From Myxococcota bacterium (GTDB lineage Bacteria; Myxococcota_A; UBA9160; UBA4427): a DNA stretch of 38,491 nucleotides. The notes under the pieces were generated by a model. The model was not told where the DNA came from, made no database searches, and saw only the letters and a list, made by a program, of their open reading frames with translations. The position numbers and the translations under genes are program-made. The stretch lies in the NCBI GenBank assembly GCA_028284295.1, contig JANQSB010000132.1, positions 1-38,491 on the forward strand, given 5' to 3'. Numbering within the stretch: the first letter of the stretch is position 1; each line of letters starts with the position of its first letter. Of this stretch, positions 2,050 through 35,373 are shown piece after piece.

Positions 2050-2181
2050 GCCCAACAAGTTGTTGGAGACGGACGTGGCCAAATCTGGGCGTAGGCGGGG
2101 TGCTAGCCTTCTGGCGTCAACCGTTGTTGACGTAGTGAGCCCGGCGGCGCGCCGCGCCGCTCGACAACCGATCCGTTGGGC
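2050..2181 (+). repeat. attC site (132-bp class)
   Basis: R'' GCCCAAC at 2050-2056 and R' GTTGGGC at 2175-2181; GCCGCCCAAC and GTTGGGCGGC are perfectly complementary. The L arms pair with two unpaired A bases in the left arm. GTGCTAGCCT box at 2100-2109, 54 nt from R''. Confidence 0.85.
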
Positions 2182-2225
2182 GGCGGCGCGCGTCCTCGGC
2201 CAGGCTGCGCTCGTCTCTGCTCCGA

Positions 2226-2897
2226 TCATGCCGCGCTCGAGAGGCGGCGCTCCGAGAGTTCTTCGACCAGGCGTACGACATCCGCTTGCGCGGCTGCTAC
2301 GGATCGGCGATGTCGCTCGTCGCCGAACTCCTGGTACTCGATGGCGACGCGGTAGGTCTCACCGACACCGAGATACCTGCTCAACGTGCGCAGGTGCGGG
2401 GTCAAATGGTCCATGCCGGCGCGCAGCCCTCCGGGTGCGAAGCCGAACTCGCCGCTCGACGTGAGTATCACGAGCGATTTGCCTTCCAGGATCGGCTCGA
2501 GCGGCCAGTCGCCACGGCCCAGGTCGAAGGTGAAGGTCTCGTCCACGCGGACGACCTGGTCGACCCACGCCTTCAGCGCGGCTGGCATTCCGTAGTTGTA
2601 CATGGGCGCGGCGATCAGCAGAAGGTCGGCCTGGCGCAGCTCGGCGATCAGCGTGTCGGAGAGCGCGAGGAGGCGCCGCTGCTCCGAACTGCGTTCGGTC
2701 TTCGGGGTGAAGGCCGCGCCGATCCAGGCCTCGGAAACCGCGGGCGGGGGCGCCGAGCCGACATCGCGATGCAGCCATGCATCGTGACGCCAACGAGCCC
2801 GCCACTCGCCGACGAAGCGATCGGCGAGCGCACGCGAGAGCGAGCGCTCCCGGCGAGCACTGGCATCGACCCGAAGAATGGTGAAGTCAGACGACAT
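2226..2897 (-). CDS. azoR: FMN-dependent NADH-azoreductase / flavodoxin-like quinone reductase
   Basis: Starts at MSSDFTILRVDAS with GGGAGG 7 nt upstream. LALSDTLIAELRQADLLLIAAPMYNYGMPAALKAWVDQVVR matches the AzoR family core. Confidence 0.8.
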   Translation of the reverse strand: MSSDFTILRVDASARRERSLSRALADRFVGEWRARWRHDAWLHRDVGSAPPPAVSEAWIGAAFTPKTERSSEQRRLLALSDTLIAELRQADLLLIAAPMYNYGMPAALKAWVDQVVRVDETFTFDLGRGDWPLEPILEGKSLVILTSSGEFGFAPGGLRAGMDHLTPHLRTLSRYLGVGETYRVAIEYQEFGDERHRRSVAAAQADVVRLVEELSERRLSSAA

Positions 2898-2982
2898 CTC
2901 GAGACCTCCCTGTGCCGCAGCCAAAATCAGCTTCTGGGCACAGAATCGGGCTTCCAAGGCCATTCAGGCAAACGAGAAAGCT

Positions 2983-2996
2983 TCATCGACAGATGA
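2983..2996. promoter_or_regulatory. Palindromic candidate LysR operator in the azoR-lysR divergent intergenic region
   Basis: TCATC-GACA-GATGA is a perfect 5-bp inverted repeat, nested in TTCA-N13-TGAA. It lies between divergent starts at 2897 and 3021. Confidence 0.4.
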
Positions 2997-3020
2997 GGTG
3001 AATTCATCTATAAGGCGAGC

Positions 3021-3941
3021 ATGTTCGCCCGCATACCCTCCCCCTCAGCCCTGCGAACCTTCGAGGCCGCCGCCCGGCTCGGTAGTTTCAAGGCCGCCGC
3101 CAAAGAACTCTCCGTGACGCCCACAGCGGTCTCCCACCAGATCCGCACCCTCGAGGAGCACCTGGAAATCCCGCTCTTCGTCCGTCGGACACGTGCCGTA
3201 GCGCTGACCGAGAGCGGCCAGCGGCTCTCCGAGGCAGTGCACCAGGCCTTCCAGCGGATCATGGTGGCGCTCGAAGAGGTCTCGGCAACGGAGACGGTCC
3301 TGAGCGTGAGCACGACGCCTGCGTTTGCTGCCCTCTGGCTCGTGCCCAGGCTGAGCCGTTTCGAAGAGCGTTATCCACAGCTCCGTGTCCAACTGGTCGC
3401 GAGTACGGCCCCAACGGATCTCCAACGGGATCGCGTCGTGGACGTCTCGGTTCGCTACGGCACCGGACCCTATCCGAGCCTTCGTGCTCATGCGCTCGCC
3501 GACGAAACCTTCGGCGCCTATGCCACGCCCGACTACATCCAGCGGCTCGAGCGGTGGGAGGACGCCGAACTGGTCGAGACCGCGTGGCAGCAGCCAGGCT
3601 TCGAGGATGTCTCGTGGGATGCGTGGCTTGCTGCGGCGGGGCTTCCCCGACCTACGAAGCTGAGATCACGACACTTCGATCAAGAGCACTATGTCGTTCA
3701 GGCCGGCTTGGCTTCCCAGGGGCTCGTGCTAGCGAGCTCTCTCCTGGTGGGTGACCTCGTAGCACGCGGATGGCTGGAACCCTATCGCCCCGAGACTCGA
3801 ATAGCGGGTCGCCGATACACGGCGCTTTCTCTGCCCAGCCGCGCCTCGTCGCGGAAGGTCTCGCAATTCCTCGAATGGCTGGAGGAGGAAGCGGCAGGCG
3901 ATGCACCAGTCGGCCGCCGCCCAACAAGGCGCCGCAGCTGA
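3021..3941 (+). CDS. LysR-family transcriptional regulator
   Basis: 306 aa. The N-terminal HTH LRTFEAAARLGSFKAAAKELSVTPTAVSHQIRTLEEHL is followed by a substrate-binding domain. It is divergent from azoR. The last codons and the stop lie inside the following attC. Confidence 0.85.
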   Translation: MFARIPSPSALRTFEAAARLGSFKAAAKELSVTPTAVSHQIRTLEEHLEIPLFVRRTRAVALTESGQRLSEAVHQAFQRIMVALEEVSATETVLSVSTTPAFAALWLVPRLSRFEERYPQLRVQLVASTAPTDLQRDRVVDVSVRYGTGPYPSLRAHALADETFGAYATPDYIQRLERWEDAELVETAWQQPGFEDVSWDAWLAAAGLPRPTKLRSRHFDQEHYVVQAGLASQGLVLASSLLVGDLVARGWLEPYRPETRIAGRRYTALSLPSRASSRKVSQFLEWLEEEAAGDAPVGRRPTRRRS

Positions 3942-4048
3942 CGTGACACAGCGCGTTCCAATCGGAGTCTGGTAGCATTCCGGCATCAACGTGCCTCGGC
4001 GACGGTCGGCGGCCTGTGCCACGCAACTGAGCGCCCAGTCCGTTAGGC
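3919..4048 (+). repeat. attC site (132-bp class)
   Basis: R'' GCCCAAC at 3919-3925 and R' GTTAGGC at 4042-4048. CTGGTAGCAT box at 3969-3978, 54 nt from R''. Confidence 0.85.
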
Positions 4049-4073
4049 TGAACTCACTTGTTCGCAGACACCC

Positions 4074-4154
4074 GCGCAACAAGGAGATCGGTGCGCAGAG
4101 AACCGGGGCCGTGAGTCGGCGCTTCTCCGCCTACCTTCGGGATCTCGAGCGCGG
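4074..4154 (+). repeat. attC remnant / empty cassette
   Basis: R''-like GCGCAAC at 4074-4080 followed by AAGG. The long-class core GCCTACCTTCGGG sits at 4129-4141. There is no right arm and it runs straight into the next attC. Confidence 0.35.
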
Positions 4155-4286
4155 GCCTAACAAGGCCCTCGAGACGGACGCGTCCACGCCTCAGCGCTAG
4201 CAGCGTGCTAGCCTTCTGGCCTCAACCGTTGTTGGAGTTGCGGGCTCGCCGCCGGGCCGCGCCGCTCGACAACGGATCCGTCAGGT
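4155..4286 (+). repeat. attC site (132-bp class)
   Basis: R'' GCCTAAC at 4155-4161 and R' GTCAGGT at 4280-4286. The left L arm CTCGAG-A-CGG-A-CGCG (4168-4182) pairs with CGCCGCTCGA on the right, with two unpaired A bases. GTGCTAGCCT box at 4205-4214. The core is near-identical to the site at 2050. Confidence 0.8.
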
Positions 4287-4308
4287 GGCGGTGCTTTCCT
4301 TGTCGTCG

Positions 4309-4821
4309 GTGCTCCCCGAACAAGAGCTGCTCTCGACCATCGCAGAGATGGGTATCGGGATCGTTGGCTTCGCGGTCGTCGCCGACATCCTTCGCTCCCG
4401 TTCTACCAGCGACGTGGTGCGGCTGTACAATCTTCGAGACGTCGCCGAGATCGGCCTGATGATCGCGGTCCTGAGTGTCTTCCCTTCCATGCTTCACGGC
4501 CTCGGGCTCTCGGCCGAGGCCAGCTGGCGCACGACGGGCGGCGGCGTTCTGGTCTGGACTGGGATCGGCGTCGCCAGCTCGTTCCGCAGGCGGGGGCCGG
4601 CATCTCTGGTCGGCGCTGCCAGAAGCAATCGGCTCGTCTCGGTCATCGTCTACATGCTGATCGGGCTCAACCTGGCACTTGCGTTCTCGAACCTGGTTGG
4701 CGCGGGTCCATCTTCTGGAGCTCGACACGTGGCGTGGGCGCTGTCGGCGCTCGGTCAAGCCGGAACCATGTTCATATCGTCGGTGTTCAGTCGTTCAGCC
4801 GAGGTGCCCGCTACCCAATAG
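4309..4821 (+). CDS. Cassette family B protein (multi-pass membrane, unknown function), copy 1
   Basis: The GTG at 4309 gives VLPEQELLSTIAEMGIGIVGFAVV, the same N-terminal length as the paralogues. An alternative GTG at 4285 lies inside attC R'. About 5 predicted TM segments. Confidence 0.65.
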   Translation: MLPEQELLSTIAEMGIGIVGFAVVADILRSRSTSDVVRLYNLRDVAEIGLMIAVLSVFPSMLHGLGLSAEASWRTTGGGVLVWTGIGVASSFRRRGPASLVGAARSNRLVSVIVYMLIGLNLALAFSNLVGAGPSSGARHVAWALSALGQAGTMFISSVFSRSAEVPATQ

Positions 4822-4929
4822 ACCGTTGCAGTGGCCTGCTGCTCAGGTGGCCTACCGAGGCGTGGTAGAATCGCGACGTCCATGTTGTTTCGTCTACGTG
4901 CAGGCCGCCGCAAGTCCGGTCTGTGAGGC
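4813..4929 (+). repeat. attC site (degenerate boxes)
   Basis: CCCAATAGACCGTTGCAGTGGCCTGC (4814-4839) is complementary to GCAGGCCGCCGCAAGTCCGGTCTGTGAGG (4900-4928). The boxes are ACCCAAT and GTGAGGC. GTGGTAGAAT box at 4862-4871. Confidence 0.55.
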
Positions 4930-4953
4930 GGCACGAAGAAATCGGAGGGTGCG

Positions 4954-5328
4954 ATGGACCTCGGCGAACATCTCCTCTGCCTCGACGTAGAGAACCTCGA
5001 AGCCTCGCTCGATTTCTACACGAAGCTCGGCTTCCGTCTCACCGAGGATCATCGACCCAAGCGATGGGCCGTGGTCGCCCATAGCAATCTCGTCGTGTGC
5101 CTGTTCGAAGGAATCGAAGAGAACCTCATGAACTTTCGAGGTGGCGACATCAGCGCGATCCAAGAGGAGGCGGTCGCGAACGGCCTCGACTTCACGAAGC
5201 CCGCTAAGCAGCACCCAGATGGCTCCTGGAACGCCACGATCCATGATCCCGATGGGAATGCGATCTTCTTCAACACCTTCCCCGATGAGCGAGAGCGCTA
5301 CGCCAGGACTGGCAGCATCGCCGACTAG
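4954..5328 (+). CDS. VOC (glyoxalase/bleomycin-resistance/dioxygenase fold) protein
   Basis: 124 aa. LCLDVENLEASLDFYTKLGFRL...IHDPDGNAIFF is the typical VOC motif pair. GGAGGG lies upstream of the ATG. Confidence 0.8.
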   Translation: MDLGEHLLCLDVENLEASLDFYTKLGFRLTEDHRPKRWAVVAHSNLVVCLFEGIEENLMNFRGGDISAIQEEAVANGLDFTKPAKQHPDGSWNATIHDPDGNAIFFNTFPDERERYARTGSIAD

Positions 5329-5334
5329 CGCGAT

Positions 5335-5496
5335 GCCTGACATCGGTGATGCAGCGTTCCAGCGCCGTCCGGTGGGCACTGGGGCAGTGCTGCCTGCCTG
5401 GGCTACGCCCATCAGCCGGCTCGGCTACCTTCGGCGCCTGGTGGCCCATTCACCTTCGACTCGGGCGCTCGCAGCTGGGTGCCGTATCCGTTGGGC
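5335..5496 (+). repeat. attC site (long class, 162 bp)
   Basis: R'' GCCTGAC at 5335-5341 and R' GTTGGGC at 5490-5496. The core ACGCCCATCAGCCGGCTCGGCTACCTT...GGGCGCTCGCAGCTG is shared with the site at 498. Confidence 0.75.
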
Positions 5497-5511
5497 TTCA
5501 GGCACAGCGGA

Positions 5512-6042
5512 GTGAGCCTTCCCCAGACGCTCGAGACCAGTCGGCTCAGGCTGCGCCCGTTCGCGGAATCGGATGGCCCAGCAGTCCTCGACTACTCGCA
5601 GGACGCCGATTGGGCGGAGTACCAGCAGACGACGCCAGCGTCCGAGAGGGAGGCAGAGCGTGTCGTCGCCGAGCTTCGACTTCGCGACTGGGAGAGTCAA
5701 CCTGCCTGGGCAATCACTCGCTCGGGCCAGGTGATCGGTCTCGTCAGCCTCGTCTTCCGTGCCGAGTACCGGATCGCTTCTCTCGGATACGGGATTCATC
5801 GGGATCACCGGGGTCTGGGGCTCACCGGAGAGGCGATTCGAGCGATCCTTGCCGAGGCCTTCGCCGCCCATCCGGAGCTTGCGAGGGTCACGGCGAACAC
5901 CGATGCGAGAAATCACAGCTCGAGTCGCTTGCTCGAGAAGCTCGGCTTCACCCTGGAAGGGACTCTTCGGTCGGGTGCGCTGACCGCCAAGGGCGAGCTT
6001 GTGGACGGCGCCATCTATGGGCTCCTCCGGTCTGAATGGTAG
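5512..6042 (+). CDS. GNAT N-acetyltransferase (RimJ/RimL-like)
   Basis: The GTG at 5512 is the first start after attC R'. LETSRLRLRPFAESD...GYGIHRDHRGLGLTGEAIRAIL...ARNHSSSRLLEKLGF is the Acetyltransf_3-type pattern. Confidence 0.8.
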   Translation: MSLPQTLETSRLRLRPFAESDGPAVLDYSQDADWAEYQQTTPASEREAERVVAELRLRDWESQPAWAITRSGQVIGLVSLVFRAEYRIASLGYGIHRDHRGLGLTGEAIRAILAEAFAAHPELARVTANTDARNHSSSRLLEKLGFTLEGTLRSGALTAKGELVDGAIYGLLRSEW

Positions 6043-6228
6043 GCCGCCCCGGCAGAGGACAGAGACTGCGATCGCGGAGCTACGCCGCGATGTGGGCCTG
6101 TCCCGAAGCGAGTTCATCGAAGCGGTCGAGCCGAATCGAGAGGCCTTCGTATCCAGCTGTTCCGGAGTCGCGGATGGCGCTCCTGACGGAGTGGCTCCCC
6201 ATCGACGGTCCGAGCTAGGCCACCCCCC

Positions 6229-6391
6229 GCCCGACGATCGAGCAGCCTTGCTCACGGTCGATGCCGGGTGGGGCGTGGCAGCCTCTGCCTCCTGGCCCGG
6301 TCCGACCGGCGCCTGTGGCATCATCGGGTCCCGAGCCGAGCGCTCATCGCGCTTCCAGGGTGGGAGTAGCCGAGCGCCCGATCCACCAGGC
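6229..6391 (+). repeat. attC-like site (degenerate)
   Basis: Starts with GCCCGAC (6229-6235), carries a central GTGGCATCAT box (6315-6324), and ends GATCCACCAGGCGGCG (compare GATCCGTCAGGCAGCG at 7823). Confidence 0.45.
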
Positions 6392-6401
6392 GGCGTGGCG
6401 C

Positions 6402-6773
6402 GTGGAGATCCGCACCAAGCGAATCTACGAAGAGCCCAGCTCGTCCGACGGTGTTCGGGTTCTGATCGACAGGCTCTGGCCTCGCGGAGTCTCCAAGGAC
6501 GCCGCCGCCATCGACTTCTGGGCCAAAGCCGTGGCCCCCTCGAACGAGTTGAGAGTCTGGTACGGGCACGATCCCACCAAGTGGCCCGAGTTTCGCCGGC
6601 GCTACTTCGCGGAGCTCGACGCGAACCCCGAGGGCGTGGCCGAGGTCGAGTCCCGGATCGACGGCGTCACTGCGACTCTGGTCTTCAGCTCGAAGGAGGA
6701 GCGAATGAACAACGCCTCCGCGTTTCGCGACTATCTCGAGCGGCGCAGATCGATCCGCCGGGCGGCGCGATGA
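6402..6773 (+). CDS. DUF488-family protein
   Basis: GTG start just after the attC. VRVLIDRLWPRGVSKDAAAIDFWAKAVAPSNELRVWYGHDPTKWPEFRRRY is the DUF488 signature. Confidence 0.75.
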   Translation: MEIRTKRIYEEPSSSDGVRVLIDRLWPRGVSKDAAAIDFWAKAVAPSNELRVWYGHDPTKWPEFRRRYFAELDANPEGVAEVESRIDGVTATLVFSSKEERMNNASAFRDYLERRRSIRRAAR

Positions 6774-7240
6774 GTGGCTTCGAGATCCGCGAGGCCCTTC
6801 CCTCGGATCGCGACGCCATCCTCTCCTTCGACCACGTGTTTCAGGCCGATCCGGGCCGGGCGTCGTTCATCGACAGAGCGCTCCGCACGGCGACTTGTCT
6901 CGTTGCGGACCGCAACGGTCGGGCAGTCGCCTATGGGGTCCTCGAATACACCTTCTTCGGAAACGGGTTCGTCTCCATGGTGTACGTCGCCGAGGCGCAC
7001 AGGCGGAGGGGCATGGGTCGCGCTCTACTGGTGGCCCTCGCGGATCGATGCACCACAGAGAAGCTGTTCACATCCACGAATCGCTCGAACGAGTCGATGC
7101 AGTCGCTCCTCGGGACCCTCGGATACGTCCCGAGCGGCTCGATCGAGAACCTGGACCCAGGCGATCCCGAGCTCGTCTACTTCCTCGATCTGCGCGGCTG
7201 TGCATCGATCGGGGTGGCAGAGCCTACGCTCCCGACCTGA
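6770..7240 (+). CDS. GNAT N-acetyltransferase
   Basis: Its ATG overlaps the DUF488 stop (ATGA). VYVAEAHRRRGMGRALLVAL is the acetyl-CoA binding motif. Confidence 0.75.
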   Translation: MSGFEIREALPSDRDAILSFDHVFQADPGRASFIDRALRTATCLVADRNGRAVAYGVLEYTFFGNGFVSMVYVAEAHRRRGMGRALLVALADRCTTEKLFTSTNRSNESMQSLLGTLGYVPSGSIENLDPGDPELVYFLDLRGCASIGVAEPTLPT

Positions 7241-7649
7241 CGCCGTACAGAGTCACGGGCTCGATACGATAGGTTCGCGCCGTGCCGTCCTGGAAGCTCG
7301 AACTGCGGTCGGCAACGAACCACTCGGGTGGGTCCGGAAACGCCCGTTGCAGCTGGGCGAGGACACGCTCTTCCGGCTCACGGATGCTGAAGCGGCCTTC
7401 GCCATGCACGCTTTCCCACTCGTAGACACCATCCGAGAGGCTCGTGTCTACCTGGAAGCCGACGCGCGAATCCTGCGCGGCCAGCTCGCTCTTTCGCCCG
7501 GGTGAAGTGATTCCCACGAGGCACCCGTCGAGGTAGGTGCACCCCAGCGTGATCACGTACGGGACTTCCGAGACGAACGCCACCCTCACGAGCTCTGCAC
7601 GTTTCAGCACCGCCTCGATCTCGTCCCGACCGAGCTGCGTCTCGGGCAT
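7224..7649 (-). CDS. Pyridoxamine 5'-phosphate oxidase-family (FMN-binding split-barrel) protein
   Basis: Starts at MPETQLGRDEIEAVLKRAELVRVAF with GGAGGA upstream. It is convergent with the GNAT gene and overlaps it by 17 nt. Confidence 0.7.
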   Translation of the reverse strand: MPETQLGRDEIEAVLKRAELVRVAFVSEVPYVITLGCTYLDGCLVGITSPGRKSELAAQDSRVGFQVDTSLSDGVYEWESVHGEGRFSIREPEERVLAQLQRAFPDPPEWFVADRSSSFQDGTARTYRIEPVTLYGVRSGA

Positions 7650-7701
7650 CGCGTCCTCCTGCCAAGGGCATCCGAGCGACGATGGTCGCGAATGCAACGT
7701 T

Positions 7702-7833
7702 GCCTAACAAGTCGTTTCGGTAGAGGTGCTCCAGCTGCGCCGAGCCCGACCGTGGTACAATCGAGTCCGTACCAGGCGTTCCCGCGGCGCTGCGGCAGAT
7801 CGCCGCGCTCCGCCGAACCGCGATCCGTCAGGC
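7702..7833 (+). repeat. attC site (132-bp class)
   Basis: R'' GCCTAAC at 7702-7708 and R' GTCAGGC at 7827-7833. Arms TTTCGG... and ...CCGAACCG are complementary. GTGGTACAAT box at 7752-7761, 54 nt from R''. Confidence 0.8.
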
Positions 7834-7851
7834 AGCGCGAGGTCGAGGGAC

Positions 7852-8472
7852 ATGGAGTGGTATTCCGGCCAGTTCATGATCTTCTTCGCGACGATCGATC
7901 CCGTGAGCACCCTCGCCCTGTTCGTGGGGCTCACGGCCAGGGTCTCGGCACGAGACCGTAGGAGGGTCGCGTTTCGGTCGGTCGGATACTCCGCCGCGAT
8001 TCTGGTGGCATTCGTCCTCGTTGGGCAACTCCTCCTCGGTTCGCTGGGCATCCGGCTCGCCTCGTTCCAGCTCGCGGGCGGCATCATCTTCTTCCTGTTC
8101 GGCGTCCAGATGGTGTTCGGGTCGGGGGCCGCAGCCTCCAGCGAAGGCCCCGAGGCCGAGCACGACATTGCGGTCTTTCCGCTTGCAGTGCCATCCATGG
8201 CCAGTCCCGGGTCCATCCTCGCTGCCGTGGTTCTCACCGACAACCGGGAGTTCACCGTCGCCGAGCAAGCCGTCTCCACCCTTCTCCTGCTGGCCGTGCT
8301 CGGCATCACCCTGGTCCTCCTGCTCCAGGCGAATCGGATCTACAGCCTGATCGGGAACGCGGGATCCACACTGCTGGTGCGGATTCTGGGCCTGGTTCTC
8401 GCGGCACTCGCAGTCGAGATGGTCCTCGAGGCAGGCAGCGAGCTCCTGCTCGAGATGCGCGCTGCCCAGTGA
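7852..8472 (+). CDS. MarC-family (UPF0056) integral membrane protein
   Basis: 206 aa. FATIDPVSTLALFVGLT...DIAVFPLAVPSMASPGSI are typical MarC motifs. Confidence 0.8.
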   Translation: MEWYSGQFMIFFATIDPVSTLALFVGLTARVSARDRRRVAFRSVGYSAAILVAFVLVGQLLLGSLGIRLASFQLAGGIIFFLFGVQMVFGSGAAASSEGPEAEHDIAVFPLAVPSMASPGSILAAVVLTDNREFTVAEQAVSTLLLLAVLGITLVLLLQANRIYSLIGNAGSTLLVRILGLVLAALAVEMVLEAGSELLLEMRAAQ

Positions 8473-8599
8473 CGACACGCCGCAGCTGACCGTTCCCCGC
8501 TCTTCCCGATCGACCTGCTCTACCCTCCGGACGTCGAAGCGGGTACCTCCGGCTGCCCGGCCGGTCCGGCCGGAAGCCGAGGGGATCGCGTCGCCAGGC
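8467..8599 (+). repeat. attC site (132-bp class geometry, degenerate boxes)
   Basis: CAGTGAC (8467-8473) includes the stop codon. A TACCCT box at 8521-8526 lies exactly 54 nt downstream. The site ends GTCGCCAGGCAG (8590-8601). Confidence 0.55.
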
Positions 8600-9203: not shown

Positions 9204-9368
9204 CATCGGCGTTGCTGCGGCCGCGGCGACGCCTAACAAGGCGTCGCGGCGGGCAGGGTCATCGCCCGGCATCGCTGTCGGTCGGCTCGTGCGATCCGAC
9301 GGCGTCCGTTCTGGTATCCTCGCGACTCAACCAGCGGCGTTCGCGGCCGAACGCCGCTGCTGTCAGGC
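9198..9368 (+). repeat. attC site with duplicated R'' (ACCTGAC and GCCTAAC)
   Basis: ACCTGAC at 9198-9204 contains the stop codon, and there is a second GCCTAAC at 9231-9237. R' GTCAGGC lies at 9362-9368. ATCGGCGTTGCTGCGGCCGCG is complementary to CGCGGCCGAACGCCGCTGCT. CTGGTATCCT box at 9311-9320. Confidence 0.7.
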
Positions 9369-9873: not shown

Positions 9874-10907
9874 GAGCTGTCGTCTACCACCAGCACGGTT
9901 CGACCGACGAACTCGTCGTCGAGGACCTTCCCGAGCCGCAACTTCGCCCCGGCGACGCGCTCATCGAGGTCGGCGCCGCATCCCTGAACGGCTTCGACCC
10001 GATGATGCTCGCCGGGAGTACCTCGCTCGAGACACCGCTTCCCATGGTCCCATGCGGGGACTTCGCGGGCCGGATCCTCGCGTTCGCGGAGGGTTCCGAC
10101 CCGGGCCCGTGGAAGGAAGGAGATCGGGTCTGCCCGCATCCGTTCGTGCTCGGAGAGGGGATGACCGGCGAGACACGCGTCGGTGCAGCCTGCGAGCGGG
10201 TCCGGATCCCGATCCCGAACCTGATCGCGATCCCGGACGGGGTAAGCGACGTACAGGCAGCCAGCCTGCCGATCGCCTACGGCACCGCCTATCGGATGAT
10301 GATCACGCGCGGAGAAGTCAGGGCCGGGGAGACGGTGCTCGTCCTCGGCGCGACCGGGGGCGTCGGCACCGGCTGTGTCCAACTGGCCAAGAGCCTCGGC
10401 GCAACCGTGATCGCCACCGGTAGCTCGGAGGCGAAGCTCGACGCACTGCGGGATCTCGGGGCCGACCACGTGATCGACAACAAGCAGGACGACTGGGTCC
10501 GCGCCGTTCACGAGATCGCCGGCAAGCCTCGGATGCTCGGATCCGGTGGCGTCGACGTCGTGATCAACTACATCGGTGGGGAGACCTGGGCGGAGTCACT
10601 CCGCTGCTTGCGGTCCGACGGACGGATGTTGACCTGCGGCGCGACGATCGGCTTCAATCCGCCGACCGACATCCGCTACATCTGGACCTACGAGCAGCGC
10701 ATCATCGGCTCGAACGGCTGGACGCCAGACGAGCAGCGCAAGCTCCTCGAGCGCGTCGCCGCAGGCGACCTCGCCCCCGTCATCGACTCCGTCGTGTCCC
10801 TCGAAGGCGCCAGGAGTGCCATGGACGCACTCATCGACCGCCGTGTCTTCGGGAAGGTGGTCATCGAACCCGCGCTCGGGCCGAGGTCTGGTAGCCTCTG
10901 CAAGTGA
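9870..10907 (+). CDS. Zinc-type alcohol dehydrogenase / quinone oxidoreductase (MDR superfamily)
   Basis: 345 aa. GETVLVLGATGGVGTGCVQLAKSLGATVIATGSS is a Rossmann motif, and the N-terminus is GroES-like. The C-terminal tail runs into attC-like sequence. Confidence 0.85.
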   Translation: MRAVVYHQHGSTDELVVEDLPEPQLRPGDALIEVGAASLNGFDPMMLAGSTSLETPLPMVPCGDFAGRILAFAEGSDPGPWKEGDRVCPHPFVLGEGMTGETRVGAACERVRIPIPNLIAIPDGVSDVQAASLPIAYGTAYRMMITRGEVRAGETVLVLGATGGVGTGCVQLAKSLGATVIATGSSEAKLDALRDLGADHVIDNKQDDWVRAVHEIAGKPRMLGSGGVDVVINYIGGETWAESLRCLRSDGRMLTCGATIGFNPPTDIRYIWTYEQRIIGSNGWTPDEQRKLLERVAAGDLAPVIDSVVSLEGARSAMDALIDRRVFGKVVIEPALGPRSGSLCK

Positions 10908-10973
10908 AAGCTGGGCGCTTCGGGCCGGCCAGCCGCGCGCCCCGTCCGCTAGGCGGCCAGGCGGAGAGTCGAT

Positions 10974-11500: not shown

Positions 11501-11548
11501 GAAGGAGCGAGAGAAGGAACGAGAGAGGGAGTGAGAGAAGGAGCGAGA
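11501..11548 (+). repeat. Four tandem 12-nt purine repeats
   Basis: GAAGGAGCGAGA / GAAGGAACGAGA / GAGGGAGTGAGA / GAAGGAGCGAGA, ending 1 nt before the ATG at 11550. Confidence 0.9.
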
Positions 11549-11549
11549 G

Positions 11550-11915
11550 ATGAAGCTGGGCAGAACGACACCGATCCTCAGGATCTTCGACCTCACGAAG
11601 GCGAAGGAGTTCTACGTCGACTTCCTGGGCTTCAGGATCGACTGGGAGCATCGCTTCGGCGAGAACTTCCCTGTCTACCTTCAGATCTCGCGGAGTGACT
11701 GCGTGCTCCACCTGTCCGAGCACCACGGCGATGCCACTCCTGGATCACGGGTCATCGTAGAGACCTCGGGGATCGAGGACTTCTGCAAGGAACTGGACGG
11801 GCGCGACTACCGCTACTTGAAGCCCGAGATCGAAGACACGGACTGGGGCAGCCGGGTCCTGTCGGTCACCGATCCCTTCGGCAATCGTCTGACCTTCTCG
11901 CAGTCCGGAGACTGA
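11550..11915 (+). CDS. VOC-fold protein, bleomycin-resistance-protein-like
   Basis: 121 aa. PILRIFDLTKAKEFYVDFLGFRIDWEHRF...WGSRVLSVTDPFGNRLTF is the glyoxalase-superfamily / Ble-like pattern. Confidence 0.75.
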   Translation: MKLGRTTPILRIFDLTKAKEFYVDFLGFRIDWEHRFGENFPVYLQISRSDCVLHLSEHHGDATPGSRVIVETSGIEDFCKELDGRDYRYLKPEIEDTDWGSRVLSVTDPFGNRLTFSQSGD

Positions 11916-12971: not shown

Positions 12972-13110
12972 TGCTGACCGCTGTACGCCGATCCACGGGG
13001 AAGCGGAGTGGCTCGCTCGGGACCGATTCGAGGCGTGGTAGGCTCTCCACGTGGCGTTCTCAGCTGCAACGGCAGATCGCCGCCAGTCGCTGAACGCCGA
13101 TCCATCAGGC
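12972..13110 (+). repeat. attC-like site with duplicated 3' arm
   Basis: GTGGTAGGCT box at 13035-13044, with ATCAGGC (13104-13110) 65 nt downstream. The arm CGCTGAACGCCGATCCAT (13087-13104) is a direct repeat of CGCTGTACGCCGATCCAC (12980-12997). The left box TGCTGAC is at 12972. Confidence 0.4.
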
Positions 13111-16263: not shown

Positions 16264-16346
16264 CATCGGCGCCTGCAACAGCCGTGCGAGACAATGGCCC
16301 TGTGCGCGAACGGGTCTTCCACCTCGCGGTCGGGTCGTGGTAGCCT
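16258..16346 (+). repeat. attC left arm plus central box (no right arm)
   Basis: R'' GCCTAAC at 16258-16264, followed by ATCGGCGCC. The GTGGTAGCCT box at 16337-16346 is followed 6 nt later by the next ATG. Confidence 0.45.
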
Positions 16347-16352
16347 GGGGTC

Positions 16353-16826
16353 ATGACGATTCAGGATCTCGGTAGCCTCGGAGAGCTGATCGCTGCCGTC
16401 GCCACGGTTGCAACGCTGATCTATCTCGCCGCCCAGATCCGCCAGAATACGTCGACGGTTCGCTCGAGCAGTGCGGCGGCGCAGAACCAGAACCAGAACA
16501 CCCTCCTTCTCAGTCTCGCGCAGGACCCGGAGCTCAACCGGATCTTCTGGGCGGGCCTGGAGGCTCGGAGCCGGCTGGAAGCCGCGGAGCAGCGCCGATT
16601 CGATGCCATCATGGCTGCGATGCTGAACAACTACGAGCAGACCTGGCGCTTCTTCAACGAACGCACCATCGAGGAGGGCGCCTGGTTGGGCCAGCTCGAC
16701 TCGATCCGCTGGTTCGTCGCGCAGCCCGGCTTCGAGGAGTACTGGACGAAGTGGAGCAACATGGTCTCGCATGACTTCGCCGAGGTCCTGATGGACGCCA
16801 GCCGGTCCGGGAGCGGCTCGGCCTGA
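16353..16826 (+). CDS. Cassette family A protein, copy 3
   Basis: Carries MTIQDLGSLGELIAAVATVATLIYLAAQIRQNT...QPGFEEYW. The stop TGA lies inside GCCTGAC (16821-16827). Confidence 0.75.
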   Translation: MTIQDLGSLGELIAAVATVATLIYLAAQIRQNTSTVRSSSAAAQNQNQNTLLLSLAQDPELNRIFWAGLEARSRLEAAEQRRFDAIMAAMLNNYEQTWRFFNERTIEEGAWLGQLDSIRWFVAQPGFEEYWTKWSNMVSHDFAEVLMDASRSGSGSA

Positions 16827-16931: not shown

Positions 16932-17006
16932 TCCGGGGTAGCAGGCTCTCGTAGTGCGCATGCACGGCCCAGCCACTCCTCGAAGCGGGTTGGGGACGGG
17001 GGGCGA

Positions 17007-17036
17007 TTGACCGCTGTCGACTCCGGGCGGCATAAT
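17007..17036 (+). promoter_or_regulatory. Sigma70-like promoter inside an attC-like element
   Basis: TTGACC (17007-17012), 18 nt, then CATAAT (17031-17036). It lies 87 nt upstream of ATG 17123. GTCGGAC (17098-17104) sits 67 nt after the -10. Confidence 0.5.
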
Positions 17037-17122
17037 CTGGAGACAGGGTCGAGCGGGTCGGCGTCGGCGTCGTTGCTGGCCGTCGGAATGCCGATCCGTC
17101 GGACGGGGCAACGACGAGCTCC

Positions 17123-17683
17123 ATGACGCTATTCGAGTACGTCGCGATCGCCTTCTCGCTCGTCTTCTCCTTCAGCGCCATGCGGCTCCTGTCGGGTCTT
17201 CCCTATGCGATCCGCCCGGGCAAGCGCTACTGGGTTCATCTCGCGTTCGTCCTGATCCATCTCCTTGGCACCTCGCTGAGCTTCTGGGCCTTCTGGGGGC
17301 TTCGGGACACGGACTGGACGCTGCCGAAGTTCCTTCTGGTCCTCGGTTCGCCCGGTGCGGTCTTCTTCATCTCGTGTGCGCTCGTACCAGAGTCCCCCTC
17401 CGCCATCACGTCCTGGCGGAGCCACTACTTCGCGACGAGGCGTTCGTTCTTCCTCGGACTGATCGTCTGGGCTCTGGTCGGCAGCGGGGTGACGACCTTC
17501 GTCGCGGGCCTTCCCTGGCTCCATCCCGTACGAGCCAGTCAGGCCTTCCTTCTCCTGCTCGGTGCGCTCGGAATGTCCTTCGCCAGCCCGCGAGCACACG
17601 CCGCACTCGCGTTGGGTGTCATCGCCGCGCTGGCAGTCATTGCGTCGACCGTCTACTTCCAACCCGTGTCCATCCCTCGATGA
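17123..17683 (+). CDS. Hypothetical multi-pass membrane protein
   Basis: 186 aa with ~6 hydrophobic segments. Its stop overlaps the next ATG (ATGA). Confidence 0.6.
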   Translation: MTLFEYVAIAFSLVFSFSAMRLLSGLPYAIRPGKRYWVHLAFVLIHLLGTSLSFWAFWGLRDTDWTLPKFLLVLGSPGAVFFISCALVPESPSAITSWRSHYFATRRSFFLGLIVWALVGSGVTTFVAGLPWLHPVRASQAFLLLLGALGMSFASPRAHAALALGVIAALAVIASTVYFQPVSIPR

Positions 17684-18213
17684 CAGCTGCGGACGCACTG
17701 CCGACGATCGCCGAGATTGCCGTCACCCTGGCGGGCTTCAGCAGCCTCCTCGTCGTGTTTCGCCCGACCGCCACGTCCCGGTGGACCGAACACGAGCTGG
17801 TCCGGATCCGTGCGCTCATCACGACCTGTGTCGTGGTGCTCGTCTGCGCCCTGGTCCCGTTCGGACTCGCCGGGCTGCGCTTCTCCGACGACGTGAGCTT
17901 CGGAGTTCCGCTCGCGGCATACGGGCTCTTCAATCTCGTATACCTGACGCTCAACGTGAGAAAGATCATGTCTCAGAAGATCCGGGTCTCGGCCCCTCGG
18001 TTGACCCTACCGGTCCTCGCGATCTCGGCAGCGGTCAACCTCGTGGTGCTCTCGAGTGGACTCGGGATCTTCCTTCCCTTCGATCCAGGAGTCCTGGTGC
18101 CCGGCCTCGTGTGGGGACTGGTGGCCGCGGTCGTCACCCTTCTGGCGACGGTGACCTTCCTCACGCAGTCCGCGGCCGACGACCGGGAAGACGTCGAAGC
18201 CGGTCCGAGATAG
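17680..18213 (+). CDS. Cassette family B protein, copy 3
   Basis: Carries MTAADALPTIAEIAVTLAGFSSLLVVF. It is translationally coupled to 17123..17683. Confidence 0.7.
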   Translation: MTAADALPTIAEIAVTLAGFSSLLVVFRPTATSRWTEHELVRIRALITTCVVVLVCALVPFGLAGLRFSDDVSFGVPLAAYGLFNLVYLTLNVRKIMSQKIRVSAPRLTLPVLAISAAVNLVVLSSGLGIFLPFDPGVLVPGLVWGLVAAVVTLLATVTFLTQSAADDREDVEAGPR

Positions 18214-18335
18214 ACGGGCTCGGACGACCGCCGTACCGCAGCACTCGCGCGGGCACGAGATCGGGCGTGGTAGAGTGGTGGTCCGGGGAGGCGCTTCAGG
18301 TTGACTTCGCGGGAAACGCCGAGCCGTCCCGACGG
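18209..18335 (+). repeat. attC site (degenerate boxes)
   Basis: GATAGAC (18209-18215) holds the stop codon. GACGGGCTCGG is complementary to CCGAGCCGTC (18319-18328). GTGGTAGAGT box at 18267-18276, with spacing like the 132-bp class. Confidence 0.5.
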
Positions 18336-19277: not shown

Positions 19278-19520
19278 TTGAGCCTGCAAGACCTCGGTAG
19301 CATCGGCGAGCTCATCGGCGCGTTCGCCGTCGTCGTCTCGCTCGTGTACCTGTCGTCCCAGATTCGCCAGAACACGAGGCAGATCGACGAGAACACCAGG
19401 GCCGCGCAGGCCGCCGCCTCCGATTCCAGCATCCGCCACGCCTTCGTGGCGCGACGGATGATCATCGAGAACGAGGACGCCTCGCCCACGGCGATCCGAG
19501 CTTGCGTCGGGGGCATCTAG
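19278..19520 (+). pseudogene. Cassette family A gene, 3'-truncated (80 aa)
   Basis: TTG start. SLQDLGSIGELIGAFAVVVSLVYLSSQIRQNT is intact, but the ORF stops at about half the family length, at TAGCCGTGTCGGA. Confidence 0.6.
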
Positions 19521-20320: not shown

Positions 20321-20429
20321 GTCGAAGCATCGGCTCGATTGACCGGGGTCGCCGTCTGGCGGCATACTGCCGGCTCGGGTCGCACCCAGTCACCGCGATC
20401 GCTGGCCGCGGAGCGCCGATCCGTTCCGC
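20321..20429 (+). repeat. attC site (TTGACC-N18-CATAMT class)
   Basis: Starts with GTCGAAG (20321-20327). The left arm CATCGGCTCG is complementary to CGGAGCGCCGAT on the right. R' GTTCCGC at 20423-20429. Confidence 0.55.
20339..20368 (+). promoter_or_regulatory. Sigma70-like promoter inside attC
   Basis: TTGACC (20339-20344), 18 nt, then CATACT (20363-20368), reading toward the family A gene at 20480. Confidence 0.5.
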
Positions 20430-21858: not shown

Positions 21859-21972
21859 GCGACACCGGGCGTTGTTGCAGCGTGGTATCCTGGCGCGCGT
21901 CCGTGGCTTCGAGCGTGCTCGGTAGATCGCCGGCTCGAGCCGAAGCCCCGCTCCGGTGGCGAAGAGCGTGTC

Positions 21973-24435: not shown

Positions 24436-24948
24436 ATGGATGCAGACTCCCGGGACCTTCTACTGACAGCGGCGGAGATCGCGGTCGCCTTCATGGGCTT
24501 CGCGAGCCTCGTCGGAGTCTTTCTGGCCCGGAACCGGGGCGGCCTGCCGCCTCGCATCCGGGCCGCGATGCAGTCGTTGATCGACTACGGGCTGCTCGCG
24601 CTGCTGGCGTGCGCGGTCCCGCTGGTCCTCCAGGTCTTCGATCCCGCCAGGCCGCACTGGGACCTGGCCAGCGGCATCGTGCTCGCGCTGGGGGTCCTCT
24701 ACGGGCTCGTGGCACACCACTTCTACCGGGAGGCGCTGGCCGAGGTCCTTCGGACCGGGAGCTTCCTGCTGTGGCTGCTCTTCATCGGCGACTTCGTCGC
24801 GTACGCGAGCCTCGGGGTCAACGCCACGGGCTGGCCCGGCGACCGAAGCGCTGCGGTCTACTTCTGCGCGTCCGTCGTGTGGTTCCTCTTCGGCTCTGCG
24901 ATCTCGTTCCGTGGCATCATGGTCCTGGCGTGGTCGGACGACGGCTAG
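24436..24948 (+). CDS. Cassette family B protein, copy 4
   Basis: Carries MDADSRDLLLTAAEIAVAFMGFASLVGVF and has the same TM layout as the other copies. Confidence 0.7.
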   Translation: MDADSRDLLLTAAEIAVAFMGFASLVGVFLARNRGGLPPRIRAAMQSLIDYGLLALLACAVPLVLQVFDPARPHWDLASGIVLALGVLYGLVAHHFYREALAEVLRTGSFLLWLLFIGDFVAYASLGVNATGWPGDRSAAVYFCASVVWFLFGSAISFRGIMVLAWSDDG

Positions 24949-25897: not shown

Positions 25898-25981
25898 GCT
25901 GCTTCCTCCGGCCCGAGGACCATTCTAGCGCGCGAGCGTGGTAGACTCGGGTGGTCCATCAAGTCGGAGGGGAGAAGAGAG

Positions 25982-28461: not shown

Positions 28462-28487
28462 CCGGTAGAATGAGGGGATCGACCCGG

Positions 28488-30537: not shown

Positions 30538-31038
30538 ATGGAAGGTGCCGACATCCTTCAGACGATCGCCGAGGTCGCGATCGCATTGACGGGCTTCACG
30601 GGGATCGTCGTCGCGCTCGGCAATCGCGGAGGCGTGCCGGTCTCGGGATTCGCCCTGGTGCGCTTCCGGATCCTGCTGGCGGCCAGCCTCGCCGCGCTCG
30701 CCTTCTCGCTGATTCCCTTCTTCTGGTACTACCTCGACATCCCCGCGAGCACGTCCTGGGCGGTCTCGAGCGGTCTGGCTCTGGTCTTCATGGTCCCGAT
30801 CGTCGTCTACGACGTTCGCGCCTTCCGCGAGCATGCCGATCAGATCCCGGTCTTCGAGCGACGAGCCGCGCCCGCCATCGCGATCCTGGGCGCCTCGCTG
30901 TGGCTCGCCCAGGTGGCGAACGTGCTGCACTTCCGCTCGTTCGGACCCTACCTGGCGGTTCCCCTGTGGTTCCTCGGCTTCTCGGCCCTCTCCTTCGCGC
31001 GGCTTCTCTTCACGCGTCAGGGTGGAGAGCATCCGTGA
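30538..31038 (+). CDS. Cassette family B protein, copy 5
   Basis: Carries MEGADILQTIAEVAIALTGFTGIVVAL. A GGAGGA RBS lies upstream. Confidence 0.7.
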   Translation: MEGADILQTIAEVAIALTGFTGIVVALGNRGGVPVSGFALVRFRILLAASLAALAFSLIPFFWYYLDIPASTSWAVSSGLALVFMVPIVVYDVRAFREHADQIPVFERRAAPAIAILGASLWLAQVANVLHFRSFGPYLAVPLWFLGFSALSFARLLFTRQGGEHP

Positions 31039-31982: not shown

Positions 31983-32012
31983 TTGACCCCGGCCGGCCGC
32001 GGGAGGCATAAT
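31983..32012 (+). promoter_or_regulatory. Sigma70-like promoter upstream of the Coq4-like gene
   Basis: TTGACC (31983-31988), 18 nt, then CATAAT (32007-32012), 40 nt before ATG 32052. The architecture matches the promoters at 17007 and 20339. Confidence 0.5.
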
Positions 32013-32980: not shown

Positions 32981-33469
32981 GTGTCGGCCGAATCCTTCCT
33001 CTCGTCCGTCGTCGAGGTGGCCATCGGCATCGGCGGCTTCGCGGGCATCATCGCGGCGATTCGTCAGGGTCGGCTCGCCGATTGGCCTGCCGACCAACGG
33101 ATCCTGCTCCAGATGCTCCTCGTGGCCTCGGCGGCGGCGATCAGCTTCGCGCTGCTGCCCTCGATCCTGGCCGAGGCGCAGCTGGACGAGCCGACGATAT
33201 GGCGGATCGGAAGCGCTCTGCTGCTGGCGTGGCAGGTGGGGATCGCCGTGCATCGGACCCGGCAGTTCCGGAGCTTCGGGGTGACACCCTGGTTCCCGCG
33301 GCTGCTCGGGGTGTGGGTGGCGGGGATCATCGCCTTCCAGGTGGCGAACCTCGGGCTGGCGATGTCGTGGCCGTACCTGGTCGGCGTGTTCGGCCTGCTG
33401 GTGAACGGGTTCTCCTTCTTCCTGCTCCTGCTCTTCGGGCGCGGGGACCCGCCGCCCGACGCCCCCTGA
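32981..33469 (+). CDS. Cassette family B protein, copy 6
   Basis: GTG start. Carries SAESFLSSVVEVAIGIGGFAGIIAAI. The stop lies inside CCCTGAC. Confidence 0.7.
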   Translation: MSAESFLSSVVEVAIGIGGFAGIIAAIRQGRLADWPADQRILLQMLLVASAAAISFALLPSILAEAQLDEPTIWRIGSALLLAWQVGIAVHRTRQFRSFGVTPWFPRLLGVWVAGIIAFQVANLGLAMSWPYLVGVFGLLVNGFSFFLLLLFGRGDPPPDAP

Positions 33470-33544
33470 CACCCGAAGAGGCGCGGGCCTGCAGCCTCTC
33501 CCGGCGCGCGATAGCCTCATTGCACACCGAAGGAGGTGCTCCAC

Positions 33545-35192: not shown

Positions 35193-35373
35193 CGGGATCC
35201 GCAAGCGGTATTCGAATCGGGTGGTCAAGCGTGTCCTTCCTTGGCGGCCCGACACAGGATATCCAGCCTCCGAATCTCCGACCCGACCGTCCTGGCCGTC
35301 GCGAGGAGAGCTACCCTGGCGGTATGGAGTCGCAGGGTCTCCCCGCGCTGTGGGCCGGAGGGGTCATCCACCC

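Follow-up and report, generated by a model that had tools for sequence, protein, structure and literature searches.

The stretch of DNA analyzed here (the window, 38,491 nt from a Myxococcota bacterium) is best explained as the array of cassettes in a sedentary chromosomal integron of a GC-rich Gram-negative bacterium. Its genes include types typical of cassettes (e.g., BrnT/BrnA, GNAT, glyoxalase, and DUF488 genes), and its recombination sites are attC sites: the core sites and lengths fit, and the bottom strands fold with R and L stems. RNAalifold applied to 54 bottom strands yields R, L, and extension stems with compensatory changes in 11 of 18 pairs. Integron integrase homologues adjoin the same attC class in related loci (L087, L146, L130, L151, L080, and L090), and the 130–132 nt class to which the best-preserved sites belong is widespread in environmental metagenomes.

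Four attC sites in the window are intact, all on the + strand: 2050–2181 (132 nt; R'' GCCCAAC 2050–2056, R' GTTGGGC 2175–2181), 3919–4048 (130 nt; R' GTTAGGC 4042–4048), 4155–4286 (132 nt; variant R' GTCAGGT 4280–4286), and 7702–7833 (132 nt; variant R' GTCAGGC 7827–7833). The bottom strand of the first folds with R and L stems (nhmmer E = 4e-8). The second, within which the stop codon of a LysR gene falls (3941), matches the metagenomic class profile at E = 7e-26, and the third, 76% identical to 2050–2189, forms an ORF-less cassette together with 4049–4154. Each site carries a + strand box of the form TGnTAnnnT: TGCTAGCCT at 2101–2109 and 4206–4214, TGGTAGCAT at 3970–3978, and TGGTACAAT at 7753–7761, the last hexamer T of which stands 91 nt before the start of a MarC gene (7852). 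As the first-pass annotation described, the hexamers TAGCCT (2104), TAGCAT (3973), TAGCCT (4209), TACAAT (7756), and TACCCT (8521) each begin 54 nt after the stated first base of R'', and TGn precedes four of the five. The hexamer, placed 64–72 nt before R' at that stage, starts 69–71 nt before the first R' base in the four intact sites. The fifth site had been counted with the others; 8467–8598 (+ strand) is, however, decayed, with an unrecognizable R'' (CAGTGAC), a partial nhmmer match (8482–8544), and a hexamer (TACCCT, 8521–8526) that lacks the preceding TG.

The box is not confined to the 132-nt class and is also found, at other offsets from R'', in + strand sites of 138–167 nt. These are 498–664 (about 167 nt; box TGCTAGCCT at 609–617 and a second hexamer, TACCTT, at 594–599), which is followed by a cassette consisting of the reversed BrnT/BrnA pair; 1293–1456 (164 nt; GGGTAGGCT at 1383–1391); and 9231–9368 (138 nt; R' GTCAGGC; TGGTATCCT at 9312–9320, its last hexamer T 68 nt before the next ORF). 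The longer-class site at 5338–5497 (+ strand, about 160 nt) has GGCTACCTT at 5423–5431, TGGTGGCCC standing where the site at 498 has TGCTAGCCT.

Perfect boxes are also retained on the + strand where nhmmer finds little or no attC beyond the box segment. In the decayed site at 4811–4941, whose arms are barely recognizable, the intact box GTGGTAGAAT (4862–4871) ends 83 nt before the start of a glyoxalase gene (4954). The decayed site at 10838–10960 overlaps the 3' end of an ADH gene and has TGGTAGCCT at 10889–10897, and that at 12985–13110 (R' ATCAGGC 13104–13110) has GTGGTAGGCT at 13035–13044, with a second glyoxalase gene starting 73 nt after the last hexamer T (13117). A family-A protein starts at a family-conserved ATG (16353) 7 nt past the last T of TGGTAGCCT (16338–16346), which lies in a remnant without its 3' half; the arrangement would be leaderless if the box is a promoter. 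The box is also found outside attC sites, ahead of genes on both strands. Further + strand copies are the intergenic boxes TGGTAGAGT at 18268–18276 and TGGTATCCT at 21883–21891, whose last hexamer T is 82 nt before a gene start (21973), and TGGTAGACT at 25939–25947. This last copy occupies non-attC sequence between divergent genes, where the last hexamer T and the ATG at 25982 are 35 nt apart with GGAGG between them.

Strict matches to TGnTAnnnT (TGNTANNNT) number 14, all on the + strand, against 7.1 expected over both strands, a count reached in one of 100 shuffles. The patterns GTGNTANNNT and TGGTANNNT each match 10 times (2.3 and 1.7 expected, respectively), counts that no shuffle reached. 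To reach the earlier figure of more than 25 copies, the pattern must be loosened to [TG]GNTANNNT, which has 25 matches on the + strand, 18 of them intergenic, and 3 on the - strand, two of which (35264 and 12861) precede - strand genes. Several boxes listed at that stage have neither TG nor GG in place (CGG-TAGAAT at 28466, CGA-TAGCCT at 33512, AGC-TACCCT at 35312, and the hexamer at 8521). The intergenic, + strand character of the box is borne out: 13 of the 14 strict matches lie in the 7.4 kb called intergenic, all on the + strand and none on the - strand, whereas 300 shuffled sequences average 0.75 and never exceed 5.

The fixed offset in five sites had been read as a sign of selection. These sites are homologous repeats, so the offset is not independent evidence, and the informative test is the comparison with related sites elsewhere. 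A metagenome scan with the pattern AACAAGNNNNYGCAGCNGAC-N80-110-TCCGTT, in which the center was left free and the box was no part of the selection, gave 146 unique attC sites of this class. TAnnnT lies 47–58 nt after R'' in 102 of these (about 70%), with a peak at 53–55; starts fall at offsets 53, 54, and 55 in 24, 51, and 10 sites and at every other offset in 0–6, and no comparable peak appears in the 146 sites for the reverse-strand pattern. The 125 sites of 126–142 nt have a median pairwise identity of 57%, and the box is present in 35 of their 52 clusters at 80% identity. When 95 sites are anchored on GTA, the conserved positions are T-15 (0.78), G-14 (0.95), and T-7 (0.97), with G (0.64) or C (0.29) at hexamer position 3 and nearly free choice at positions 4–5 (0.25–0.30 bits). 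This is the sigma-70 extended -10 pattern. About a quarter of the class (36 of 146) has neither promoter form, a count that probably includes a few sequences other than attC.

Since the sites are homologous, some of the conservation of the box is shared ancestry. The box could then be functionless, a feature inherited from a common ancestral attC that resembles a promoter in looks only, and a fixed offset is what repeats with few indels are expected to show. Yet at 57% median identity T-7 and G-14 are kept in 97% and 95% of sites, against 0.2–0.5 bits at adjacent positions, and the 27 different hexamers of the class all keep TA...T. TANNNT occurs at about 0.2% per position elsewhere in the same sites, as opposed to 35% at offset 54. 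A site elsewhere (L039:10505) and the window sites at 2050 and 4155 are very different just upstream of the box, and TGCTAGCCTTCT is common to all of them. In the window, moreover, the box outlasts the remainder of the attC, and functionless inheritance is quite improbable.

In a sister group of sites, sub-family 2, the box is replaced at about the same place by a -35/-10 pair, TTGACC-18-CATA(A/C)T. TTGAC(C/G)-18-CATACT is found in eight metagenomic sites of this sub-family. A generic sigma-70 -35/-10 scan of both strands of the 38.5 kb returns only three matches, all of them + strand sub-family 2 copies: TTGACC-18-CATAAT at 17007–17036 in an attC remnant (17004–17105), TTGACC-18-CATACT at 20339–20368 in another (20325–20425; nhmmer E = 8e-7), and TTGACC-18-CATAAT at 31983–32012, 40 nt before the start of a Coq4-family gene. 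The copy at 31983 follows CACAGCGCGTT, a sequence that is conserved in this attC class.

The box does not appear to be held in place by pairing. Among the 54 bottom strands, RNAalifold gives no consensus pairing across the attC center and no covarying or consensus partner for the box; the predicted probability of pairing falls to its minimum at T-12 (0.14) and T-7 (0.25), compared with more than 0.85 in the arms. The predicted exposure of the conserved T and A bases in the folded strand would also make them readable by a protein, and the box might instead be a recognition or folding determinant of attC, read in single-stranded or duplex form by the cognate integrase or a host factor and unrelated to transcription. 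The location of the box, in the variable center of the site and at a constant distance from R'', is compatible with such a role. So is the conservation of neighbors unaccounted for by the promoter model, namely G at +9 from the T of TA (0.88), TTCTGGC, and the upstream CAATCGA. Against a determinant, the conserved positions correspond one-for-one to those read by sigma-70, on the strand facing the next gene, and the box outlives the R and L arms and recurs outside attC before genes on both strands. It is wholly absent from the attC sites of L024 (23 copies), and sub-family 2 exchanges it for a -35/-10 pair rather than a similar motif. Recognition of attC is known to depend on its R and L boxes and its extrahelical bases rather than on the sequence of the variable loop, and a determinant role for the box is unlikely.

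The motif TGGTAnnnTTCTGGC also invites comparison with sigma-54 (-24/-12) promoters, which have TGGCAC-N5-TTGC (the Klebsiella nifH promoter reads TGGTAT-N5-CTGCA). Many class members have GG followed by GC 12 nt on, and a few variants read TGGCACCGTTCTGGC (L162) or TGGTGGCATTCTGGC (L113 and L147). However, the GC of the -12 position is present in just 0.62 and 0.58 of sites; a position that is mostly T in sigma-54 promoters is G here (0.88, with T at 0.02); the best-conserved base (T at +5, 0.97) would sit in the sigma-54 spacer; and, in the window, boxes that do not belong to the 132-nt class all lack a correctly spaced GC. A sigma-54 promoter is highly improbable.

The box is rather likely to be an outward promoter embedded in attC, as the first-pass annotation suggested. 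Its conservation, predicted unpaired state, and persistence and the sister -35/-10 pair speak for this reading; the quarter of the class without either element and the boxes at 609 and 2101, which point at cassettes starting with a reversed gene, speak against it. The attC status of the sites and the conservation pattern, strand, position, and persistence of the box are direct observations, from which polymerase binding, start sites, and promoter activity are predicted. RNA polymerase with the housekeeping sigma factor would read T(-15)G(-14)g T(-12)A(-11)nnnT(-7) in duplex DNA, on the top strand at the center of the site, and would need no -35 element. Transcription would start about 7 nt past the hexamer (near 2116, 3985, 4221, and 7768 in the four intact sites), cross the L'-R' half of attC, and enter the next cassette. 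The leader of 70–95 nt would not include the 5' arm of attC, and therefore could not form the full attC hairpin. Each cassette would thus supply a promoter to its downstream neighbor, independently of the integron's cassette promoter (Pc), and the promoter would be kept as recombination arms decay. At positions 3–5, TAGCCT, TACCGT, and similar hexamers bear little resemblance to TATAAT, and a -35 element is absent; the strength of the putative promoter may be low. With the box in the window sites and in about 70% of related metagenomic sites, cassettes may not depend on a single upstream integron promoter.

In the papers searched, no description was found of an attC class with a built-in promoter. 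Extended -10 sigma-70 promoters (TGnTATAAT) share with the box TG at -15/-14, T-12, A-11, T-7, and the lack of a -35 requirement; the box differs in its conserved G at -13 and its G/C-rich hexamer interior (TAGCCT, TACCGT). Such an interior is usual in GC-rich bacteria. The sites resemble those of sedentary chromosomal integrons (59-base elements; the roughly 125-nt Vibrio cholerae repeats) in their R''/L''/L'/R' architecture, imperfect palindrome, and bulged bases, in a length of about 130 nt, in tandem arrays bounding small ORFs, and in a nearby integron integrase, here in related loci. The papers searched credit the variable attC center with no conserved function, whereas here either TGnTAnnnT or TTGACC-18-CATAxT is conserved in it and is directed toward the following cassette.

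Cassette-borne promoters (in cmlA, qac, qnrVC1, and toxin-antitoxin cassettes and in gene-less promoter cassettes; PMC8876359, PMC11014356, PMC6557892) are likewise internal and free cassettes from Pc, as is predicted here. Each of them, however, belongs to an individual cassette, within its body or 5' UTR, whereas the present element lies in the recombination site and is common to a whole attC class on many contigs. Start sites within attC were detected for a single cassette, and the authors considered that they might be spurious (PMC11014356). Group IIC-attC introns also place an outward promoter at attC sites, from which downstream cassettes are expressed (PMC3001079), as is predicted for the box; that promoter is on the inserted intron, not in attC sequence. 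In Vibrio sp. DAT722, where cassettes 20 and 21 meet, attC contributes to a hybrid promoter for the downstream cassette (Michael and Labbate 2010, PMC2945992), much as is predicted here. In DAT722, attC gives the -35 only and the -10, unique in that array, comes from cassette 21, whereas the element described here is complete within attC and recurrent.

The window has a G+C content of 62-73% along its 38.5 kb and is dense with small ORFs, predominantly on the + strand. According to the gene map and Pfam assignments, attC sites bound tandem small accessory ORFs that are mostly co-oriented. The Pfam families include TonB_C, an FMN reductase with a LysR regulator, DUF488, MarC, DUF1990, an APH-family kinase, GST and several methyltransferases, as well as four glyoxalase/bleomycin-resistance proteins, three GNAT acetyltransferases, and a BrnT/BrnA toxin-antitoxin pair in reversed orientation; this content is typical of integron cassettes. 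In the first 13 kb, + strand attC sites with the cores R'' (RYYYAAC) and R' (GTTRRRY or GTCAGGY) lie between the ORFs. Past 13 kb the cassette-like genes continue and attC sites are reduced to remnants. No integrase was found within the window, which begins inside the array. The region 13000-38491, in which glyoxalase, GNAT, methyltransferase, APH, GST, and DUF genes are separated by attC remnants only, looks like an old array with fixed cassettes.

Four genes (GNAT, DUF488, GNAT, and a reversed pyridoxamine-oxidase-like gene) occupy 5498-7701, flanked by two attC sites with none between, and this segment includes a 317-nt stretch without a called gene (6043-6359). A 12-nt tandem repeat, GAAGGAGCGAGA, is present in about five copies at 11501-11560 and extends into the start of a glyoxalase gene (11550-11915). 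Three paralogous cassette proteins (1525-2022, 16353-16826, and 19278-19520), for which Pfam has no matching family, have a common N-terminus, M.lqDLGsIGEli; their relatives, at 22-53% identity, were found at 61 loci in MAGs of marine Gammaproteobacteria, Myxococcota, and others, several of them within cassette arrays. A second paralogous family, also without a Pfam match, consists of multi-pass membrane proteins of 20-25% identity (4309-4821, 17680-18213, 24436-24948, 30538-31038, and 32981-33469, with a remnant near 10986). A scan of the window at Rfam gathering thresholds gave no matches.

Inverted R'' and R' core sites spaced 50-150 nt apart are exact at 2050-2181 and 3919-4048, whereas the sites at 4155, 7702, and 9231 carry a single T-to-C change that turns R' into GTCAGGY. 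A strict RYYYAAC...GTTRRRY search of the window therefore recovers only four real sites, because several R' boxes are variant. The variant R' is GTCAGGY at 4280-4286, 7827-7833, and 9362-9368 and ATCAGGC at 13104-13110, and each produces an A-C mismatch with R'' beside the crossover point; such sites may perhaps be inactivated. When folded as DNA, the bottom strands of the 2050 and 3919 sites form an R stem of 8 bp followed, after a spacer, by an L stem with bulges, and the pairing-probability profile of the bottom-strand folds has two dips in the 5' arm. An RNAalifold alignment of 50 related metagenomic sites with four window sites yields a consensus with an R stem, an L region divided by bulges into three short stems, and an extension stem. 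Of its 18 pairs, 11 include compensatory changes (e.g., one pair is GC in 19 sites, CG in 14, AU in 9, and UA in 3).

Homologues of IntI adjoin the same attC class in four comparison loci from MAG and metagenome collections (L087, L146, L130, and L151), with 49-55% identity over 250-330 residues in tblastn with an approximate IntI1 query; the same query detected a partial copy in L080 and a fragment in L090. Integrons usually carry the integrase gene divergent from the cassettes. This orientation is found in L087, L146, and L024, and the integrase homologue is co-oriented with the cassettes in L130 (7947-8906) and L151 (3-752). Judged by cores and predicted folds, the 130-132 nt sites are genuine attC sites, for which recombination by IntI is a prediction.

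The box is an extended -10-like element, TGnTAnnnT, in the middle of these sites, and its TAnnnT part is referred to as the hexamer. The first-pass annotation placed five hexamers (2104, 3973, 4209, 7756, and 8521) exactly 54 nt past R'' starts at 2050, 3919, 4155, 7702, and 8467, and all five are found there. The rigid geometry ascribed to these sites applies to the four intact members (2050-2181, 3919-4048, 4155-4286, and 7702-7833), which are 130-132 nt long with the hexamer starting 69-71 nt ahead of R'; the 8467 site is decayed and is also the only one of the five to lack the upstream TG. More than 25 copies had been counted across the window. That figure is reached with the looser pattern [TG]GNTANNNT (25 on the + strand and 3 on the - strand) but not with TGnTAnnnT, of which there are 14 copies, and some of the recurrences that had been listed lack both TG and GG ahead of the hexamer.

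The box is enriched and oriented. All 14 matches to TGNTANNNT are on the + strand, compared with 7.1 expected over both strands, and GTGNTANNNT and TGGTANNNT each occur 10 times against 2.3 and 1.7 expected. Intergenic DNA, which makes up 7.4 kb of the window, contains 13 copies on the + strand and none on the - strand, whereas shuffled sequences contain a mean of 0.75 and a maximum of 5. For most intergenic + strand boxes the next start follows the hexamer's last T at a distance of 7-110 nt, which is 68-95 nt for those borne on attC sites. Boxes 609 and 2101 point at cassettes that open with a reversed gene. Two of the three - strand matches to the loose pattern are upstream of - strand genes.

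Related sites were collected from metagenomes with a pattern built on R'', L'', and R' bases only, AACAAGNNNNYGCAGCNGAC-N80-110-TCCGTT, which leaves the centre unconstrained. Members of the class are abundant there, with at least 120 stretches and at least 146 unique sites returned. A blastn search of a plasmid collection with attC 3915-4052 gave no match. Among the 146 matches listed, TANNNT begins at an offset of 53 nt (24 sites), 54 nt (51 sites), or 55 nt (10 sites) from the first base of R''; each other offset accounts for 0-6 sites, and the reverse-strand hexamer pattern has no offset peak. A hexamer is present at offsets 47-58 in 102 of these 146. For the 125 listed matches of 126-142 nt, pairwise identities have a median of 57%, and clustering at 80% identity gives 52 clusters, 35 of which contain the box. 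About a quarter of the class members among the matches listed lack a promoter-like element. Twenty-seven distinct hexamers are represented.

Positional frequencies were taken from 95 sites anchored on GTA, the anchored bases not being free to vary. In these sites T-15 is kept at 0.78, G-14 at 0.95, and T-7 at 0.97; hexamer position 3 is G (0.64) or C (0.29), and positions 4-5 carry 0.25-0.30 bits. The earlier expectation that the box would be better conserved than the surrounding loop is borne out for G-14 and T-7, which stand at 0.95-0.97 beside near-random neighbours, but a G at +9 and the nearby motifs TTCTGGC and CAATCGA are conserved as well. The same contrast, in a sample as divergent as this one, contradicts the proposal that the box persists through shared ancestry alone.

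Housekeeping sigma factors contact the TG, T-12, A-11, and T-7 of an extended -10 element. The box would qualify as such a sigma-70 element from its bases, as it has the upstream TG and keeps T-12, A-11, and T-7 while tolerating change at the inner positions. It is also placed upstream of genes and directed toward them, including where it occurs outside the repeat. Other readings of the motif fit less well. A sigma-54 (-24/-12) promoter was considered for the similarity of the motif to TGGYAC-N5-TGGC and discarded because of the base frequencies at its positions. Sigma-54 promoters have near-invariant GG and GC at fixed spacing, with T ahead of the GC; here the -12 GC reaches only 0.62/0.58, the base before it is G at 0.88 and T at 0.02, the best-conserved T would fall in the spacer, and the GC is missing from window boxes outside the 132-nt class. 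An AT-rich apex that merely eases melting is rejected because G or C predominates at hexamer positions 3-5 and because specific bases at fixed spacing are the ones constrained. A TAG stop codon ending ORFs that run into attC is likewise rejected, since 29% of sites have TAC and since T-7 and the TG would be left unexplained.

The box might alternatively be a determinant of recombination or folding, an explanation that we consider unlikely. Its fixed position would be accounted for in this way, as would the conserved G at +9, TTCTGGC, and CAATCGA nearby; the match to the positions contacted by sigma-70 would not. Neither partition-function folds nor RNAalifold of the 54 sites provided a pairing partner for the box. 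The arms of the bottom strand pair with a probability above 0.85, the minima fall at T-12 (0.14) and T-7 (0.25), and the central 85 columns of the RNAalifold alignment contain no consensus pair. The modelled folds indicate that base pairing does not constrain the box.

The same attC class with its box was found in three MAG loci (L027, L012, and L039) by a genome scan with a window cassette protein family. L027, labelled as an uncultured Myxococcales (59% G+C), contains 10 sites, each about 130 nt long, nine of which have an aligned TAnnnT; L012 and L039 carry Gammaproteobacteria labels. The site at L039:10505 is closely related to window sites 2050 and 4155, and although the three diverge heavily just upstream of the box, TGCTAGCCTTCT is common to all. 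A useful negative control is provided by an Azotimanducaceae-labelled MAG (L024, 6033-19300), in which 23 almost identical attC sites, each about 100 nt long, adjoin an intI homologue and none contains the TAnnnT box. The box is therefore a trait of certain attC classes and not of attC generally. A further class, on a contig binned as Acidimicrobiaceae (L051, 1496-3800), has TAGACT or GGGTAGGCT hexamers near the 3' end, and promoter-like boxes may perhaps be present in other attC classes too.

Within the window, a perfect (G/C)TGGTAnnnT is kept in four sites with decayed arms (4811, 10838, 12985, and the remnant 16264-16352). When searched with a profile built from the metagenomic class, 4811, 10838, and 16264-16352 give little or no match past the box-bearing segment, and the 12985 site matches only over its 3' two-thirds (E = 0.006). 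In the 16264-16352 remnant, where the 3' half of attC is lost, the + strand box at 16338 has the last T of its hexamer exactly 7 nt before an ATG, and the protein that starts there has an N-terminus conserved across its family; this spacing would be that of a leaderless mRNA. Another + strand box, at 25939, is not part of an attC site: it lies in a divergent intergenic region with its last T 35 nt before an ATG and GGAGG between. Survival of the box past arm decay and its copies outside attC are left unexplained if the box serves recombination or folding. As a separate observation, L034, a Myxococcota MAG locus of 69% G+C that is similar to the window's distal part and has no intact attC seen, carries TGNTANNNT six times on the strand of its family-A gene (a relative of the paralogous window cassette proteins) and not on the opposite strand; at least one copy is about 35 nt ahead of an ATG, with GGAGG in between.

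About 10 sites have TTGAC(C/G)-18 nt-CATA(A/C)T in place of TGGTAnnnT, at about the same location. The carriers are eight metagenomic sites among the matches listed, L027:5535, and two remnants in the window (17004-17105 and 20325-20425). The + strand copies in the window (17007, 20339, and 31983) are intergenic, 40-112 nt ahead of an ORF, and were the only matches in a generic -35/-10 scan of both strands. A recombination or folding determinant does not explain the exchange of the box for a -35/-10 pair.

These features are most economically read as an outward promoter borne by this attC class on its top strand, although the box hexamers are G/C-rich inside and have no accompanying -35. Transcription would start about 7 nt past the hexamer and cross L'-R' into the next cassette. 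Such a transcript would lack the 5' arm of attC and so could not form the attC hairpin, which is able to hinder translation (PMC8876359). A more speculative extension, to which we give little credence, follows from the apical position predicted for the promoter in the attC palindrome. There the open-complex bubble (-11 to +2, at offsets of about 55-68 in a 130-135 nt site) would coincide with the centre where cruciform extrusion must begin, so polymerase binding could couple expression and recombination, either by nucleating extrusion of the recombinogenic hairpin or by preventing folding during transcription of the neighbouring cassette. In that case the site would serve as a joint promoter and recombination switch, and a site with decayed arms would persist as an ordinary promoter, offering cassettes a route to become fixed genes.

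Textbook descriptions treat cassettes as promoterless, with their expression depending on a single promoter (Pc) where the array begins; the distal cassettes of large chromosomal arrays are consequently viewed as a silent reserve. If attC carries a promoter, each insertion would supply one to the cassette behind it, and expression in such arrays would not weaken as distance from Pc grows. ORF-less cassettes would be promoters by default, and the window has one at 4049-4286 (106 nt followed by a 132-nt attC bearing the box) that would be a ready-made promoter cassette. For these hosts, models that weigh the costs and benefits of cassette order and shuffling would have to be revised. With defined mutable bases (A-11, T-7, and the TG) and an abundant class, the promoter idea is directly testable.

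Internal transcription of arrays has been seen before and credited to individual cassettes or to spurious initiation. Promoters have been reported within particular cassettes and as gene-less promoter cassettes (PMC8876359, PMC11014356, PMC6557892), start sites have been located inside one attC, where they were regarded as potentially spurious (PMC11014356), one hybrid promoter, unique of its kind, has its -35 in attC (PMC2945992), and introns inserted into attC sites bring promoters of their own (PMC3001079). A conserved, complete promoter element belonging to an attC class was not described in the full-text literature searched. The promoters in that literature belong to particular cassettes, gene-less promoter cassettes, inserted introns, or a hybrid with its -35 in attC, whereas here the whole candidate element, supported by sequence comparison, is part of the attC class.
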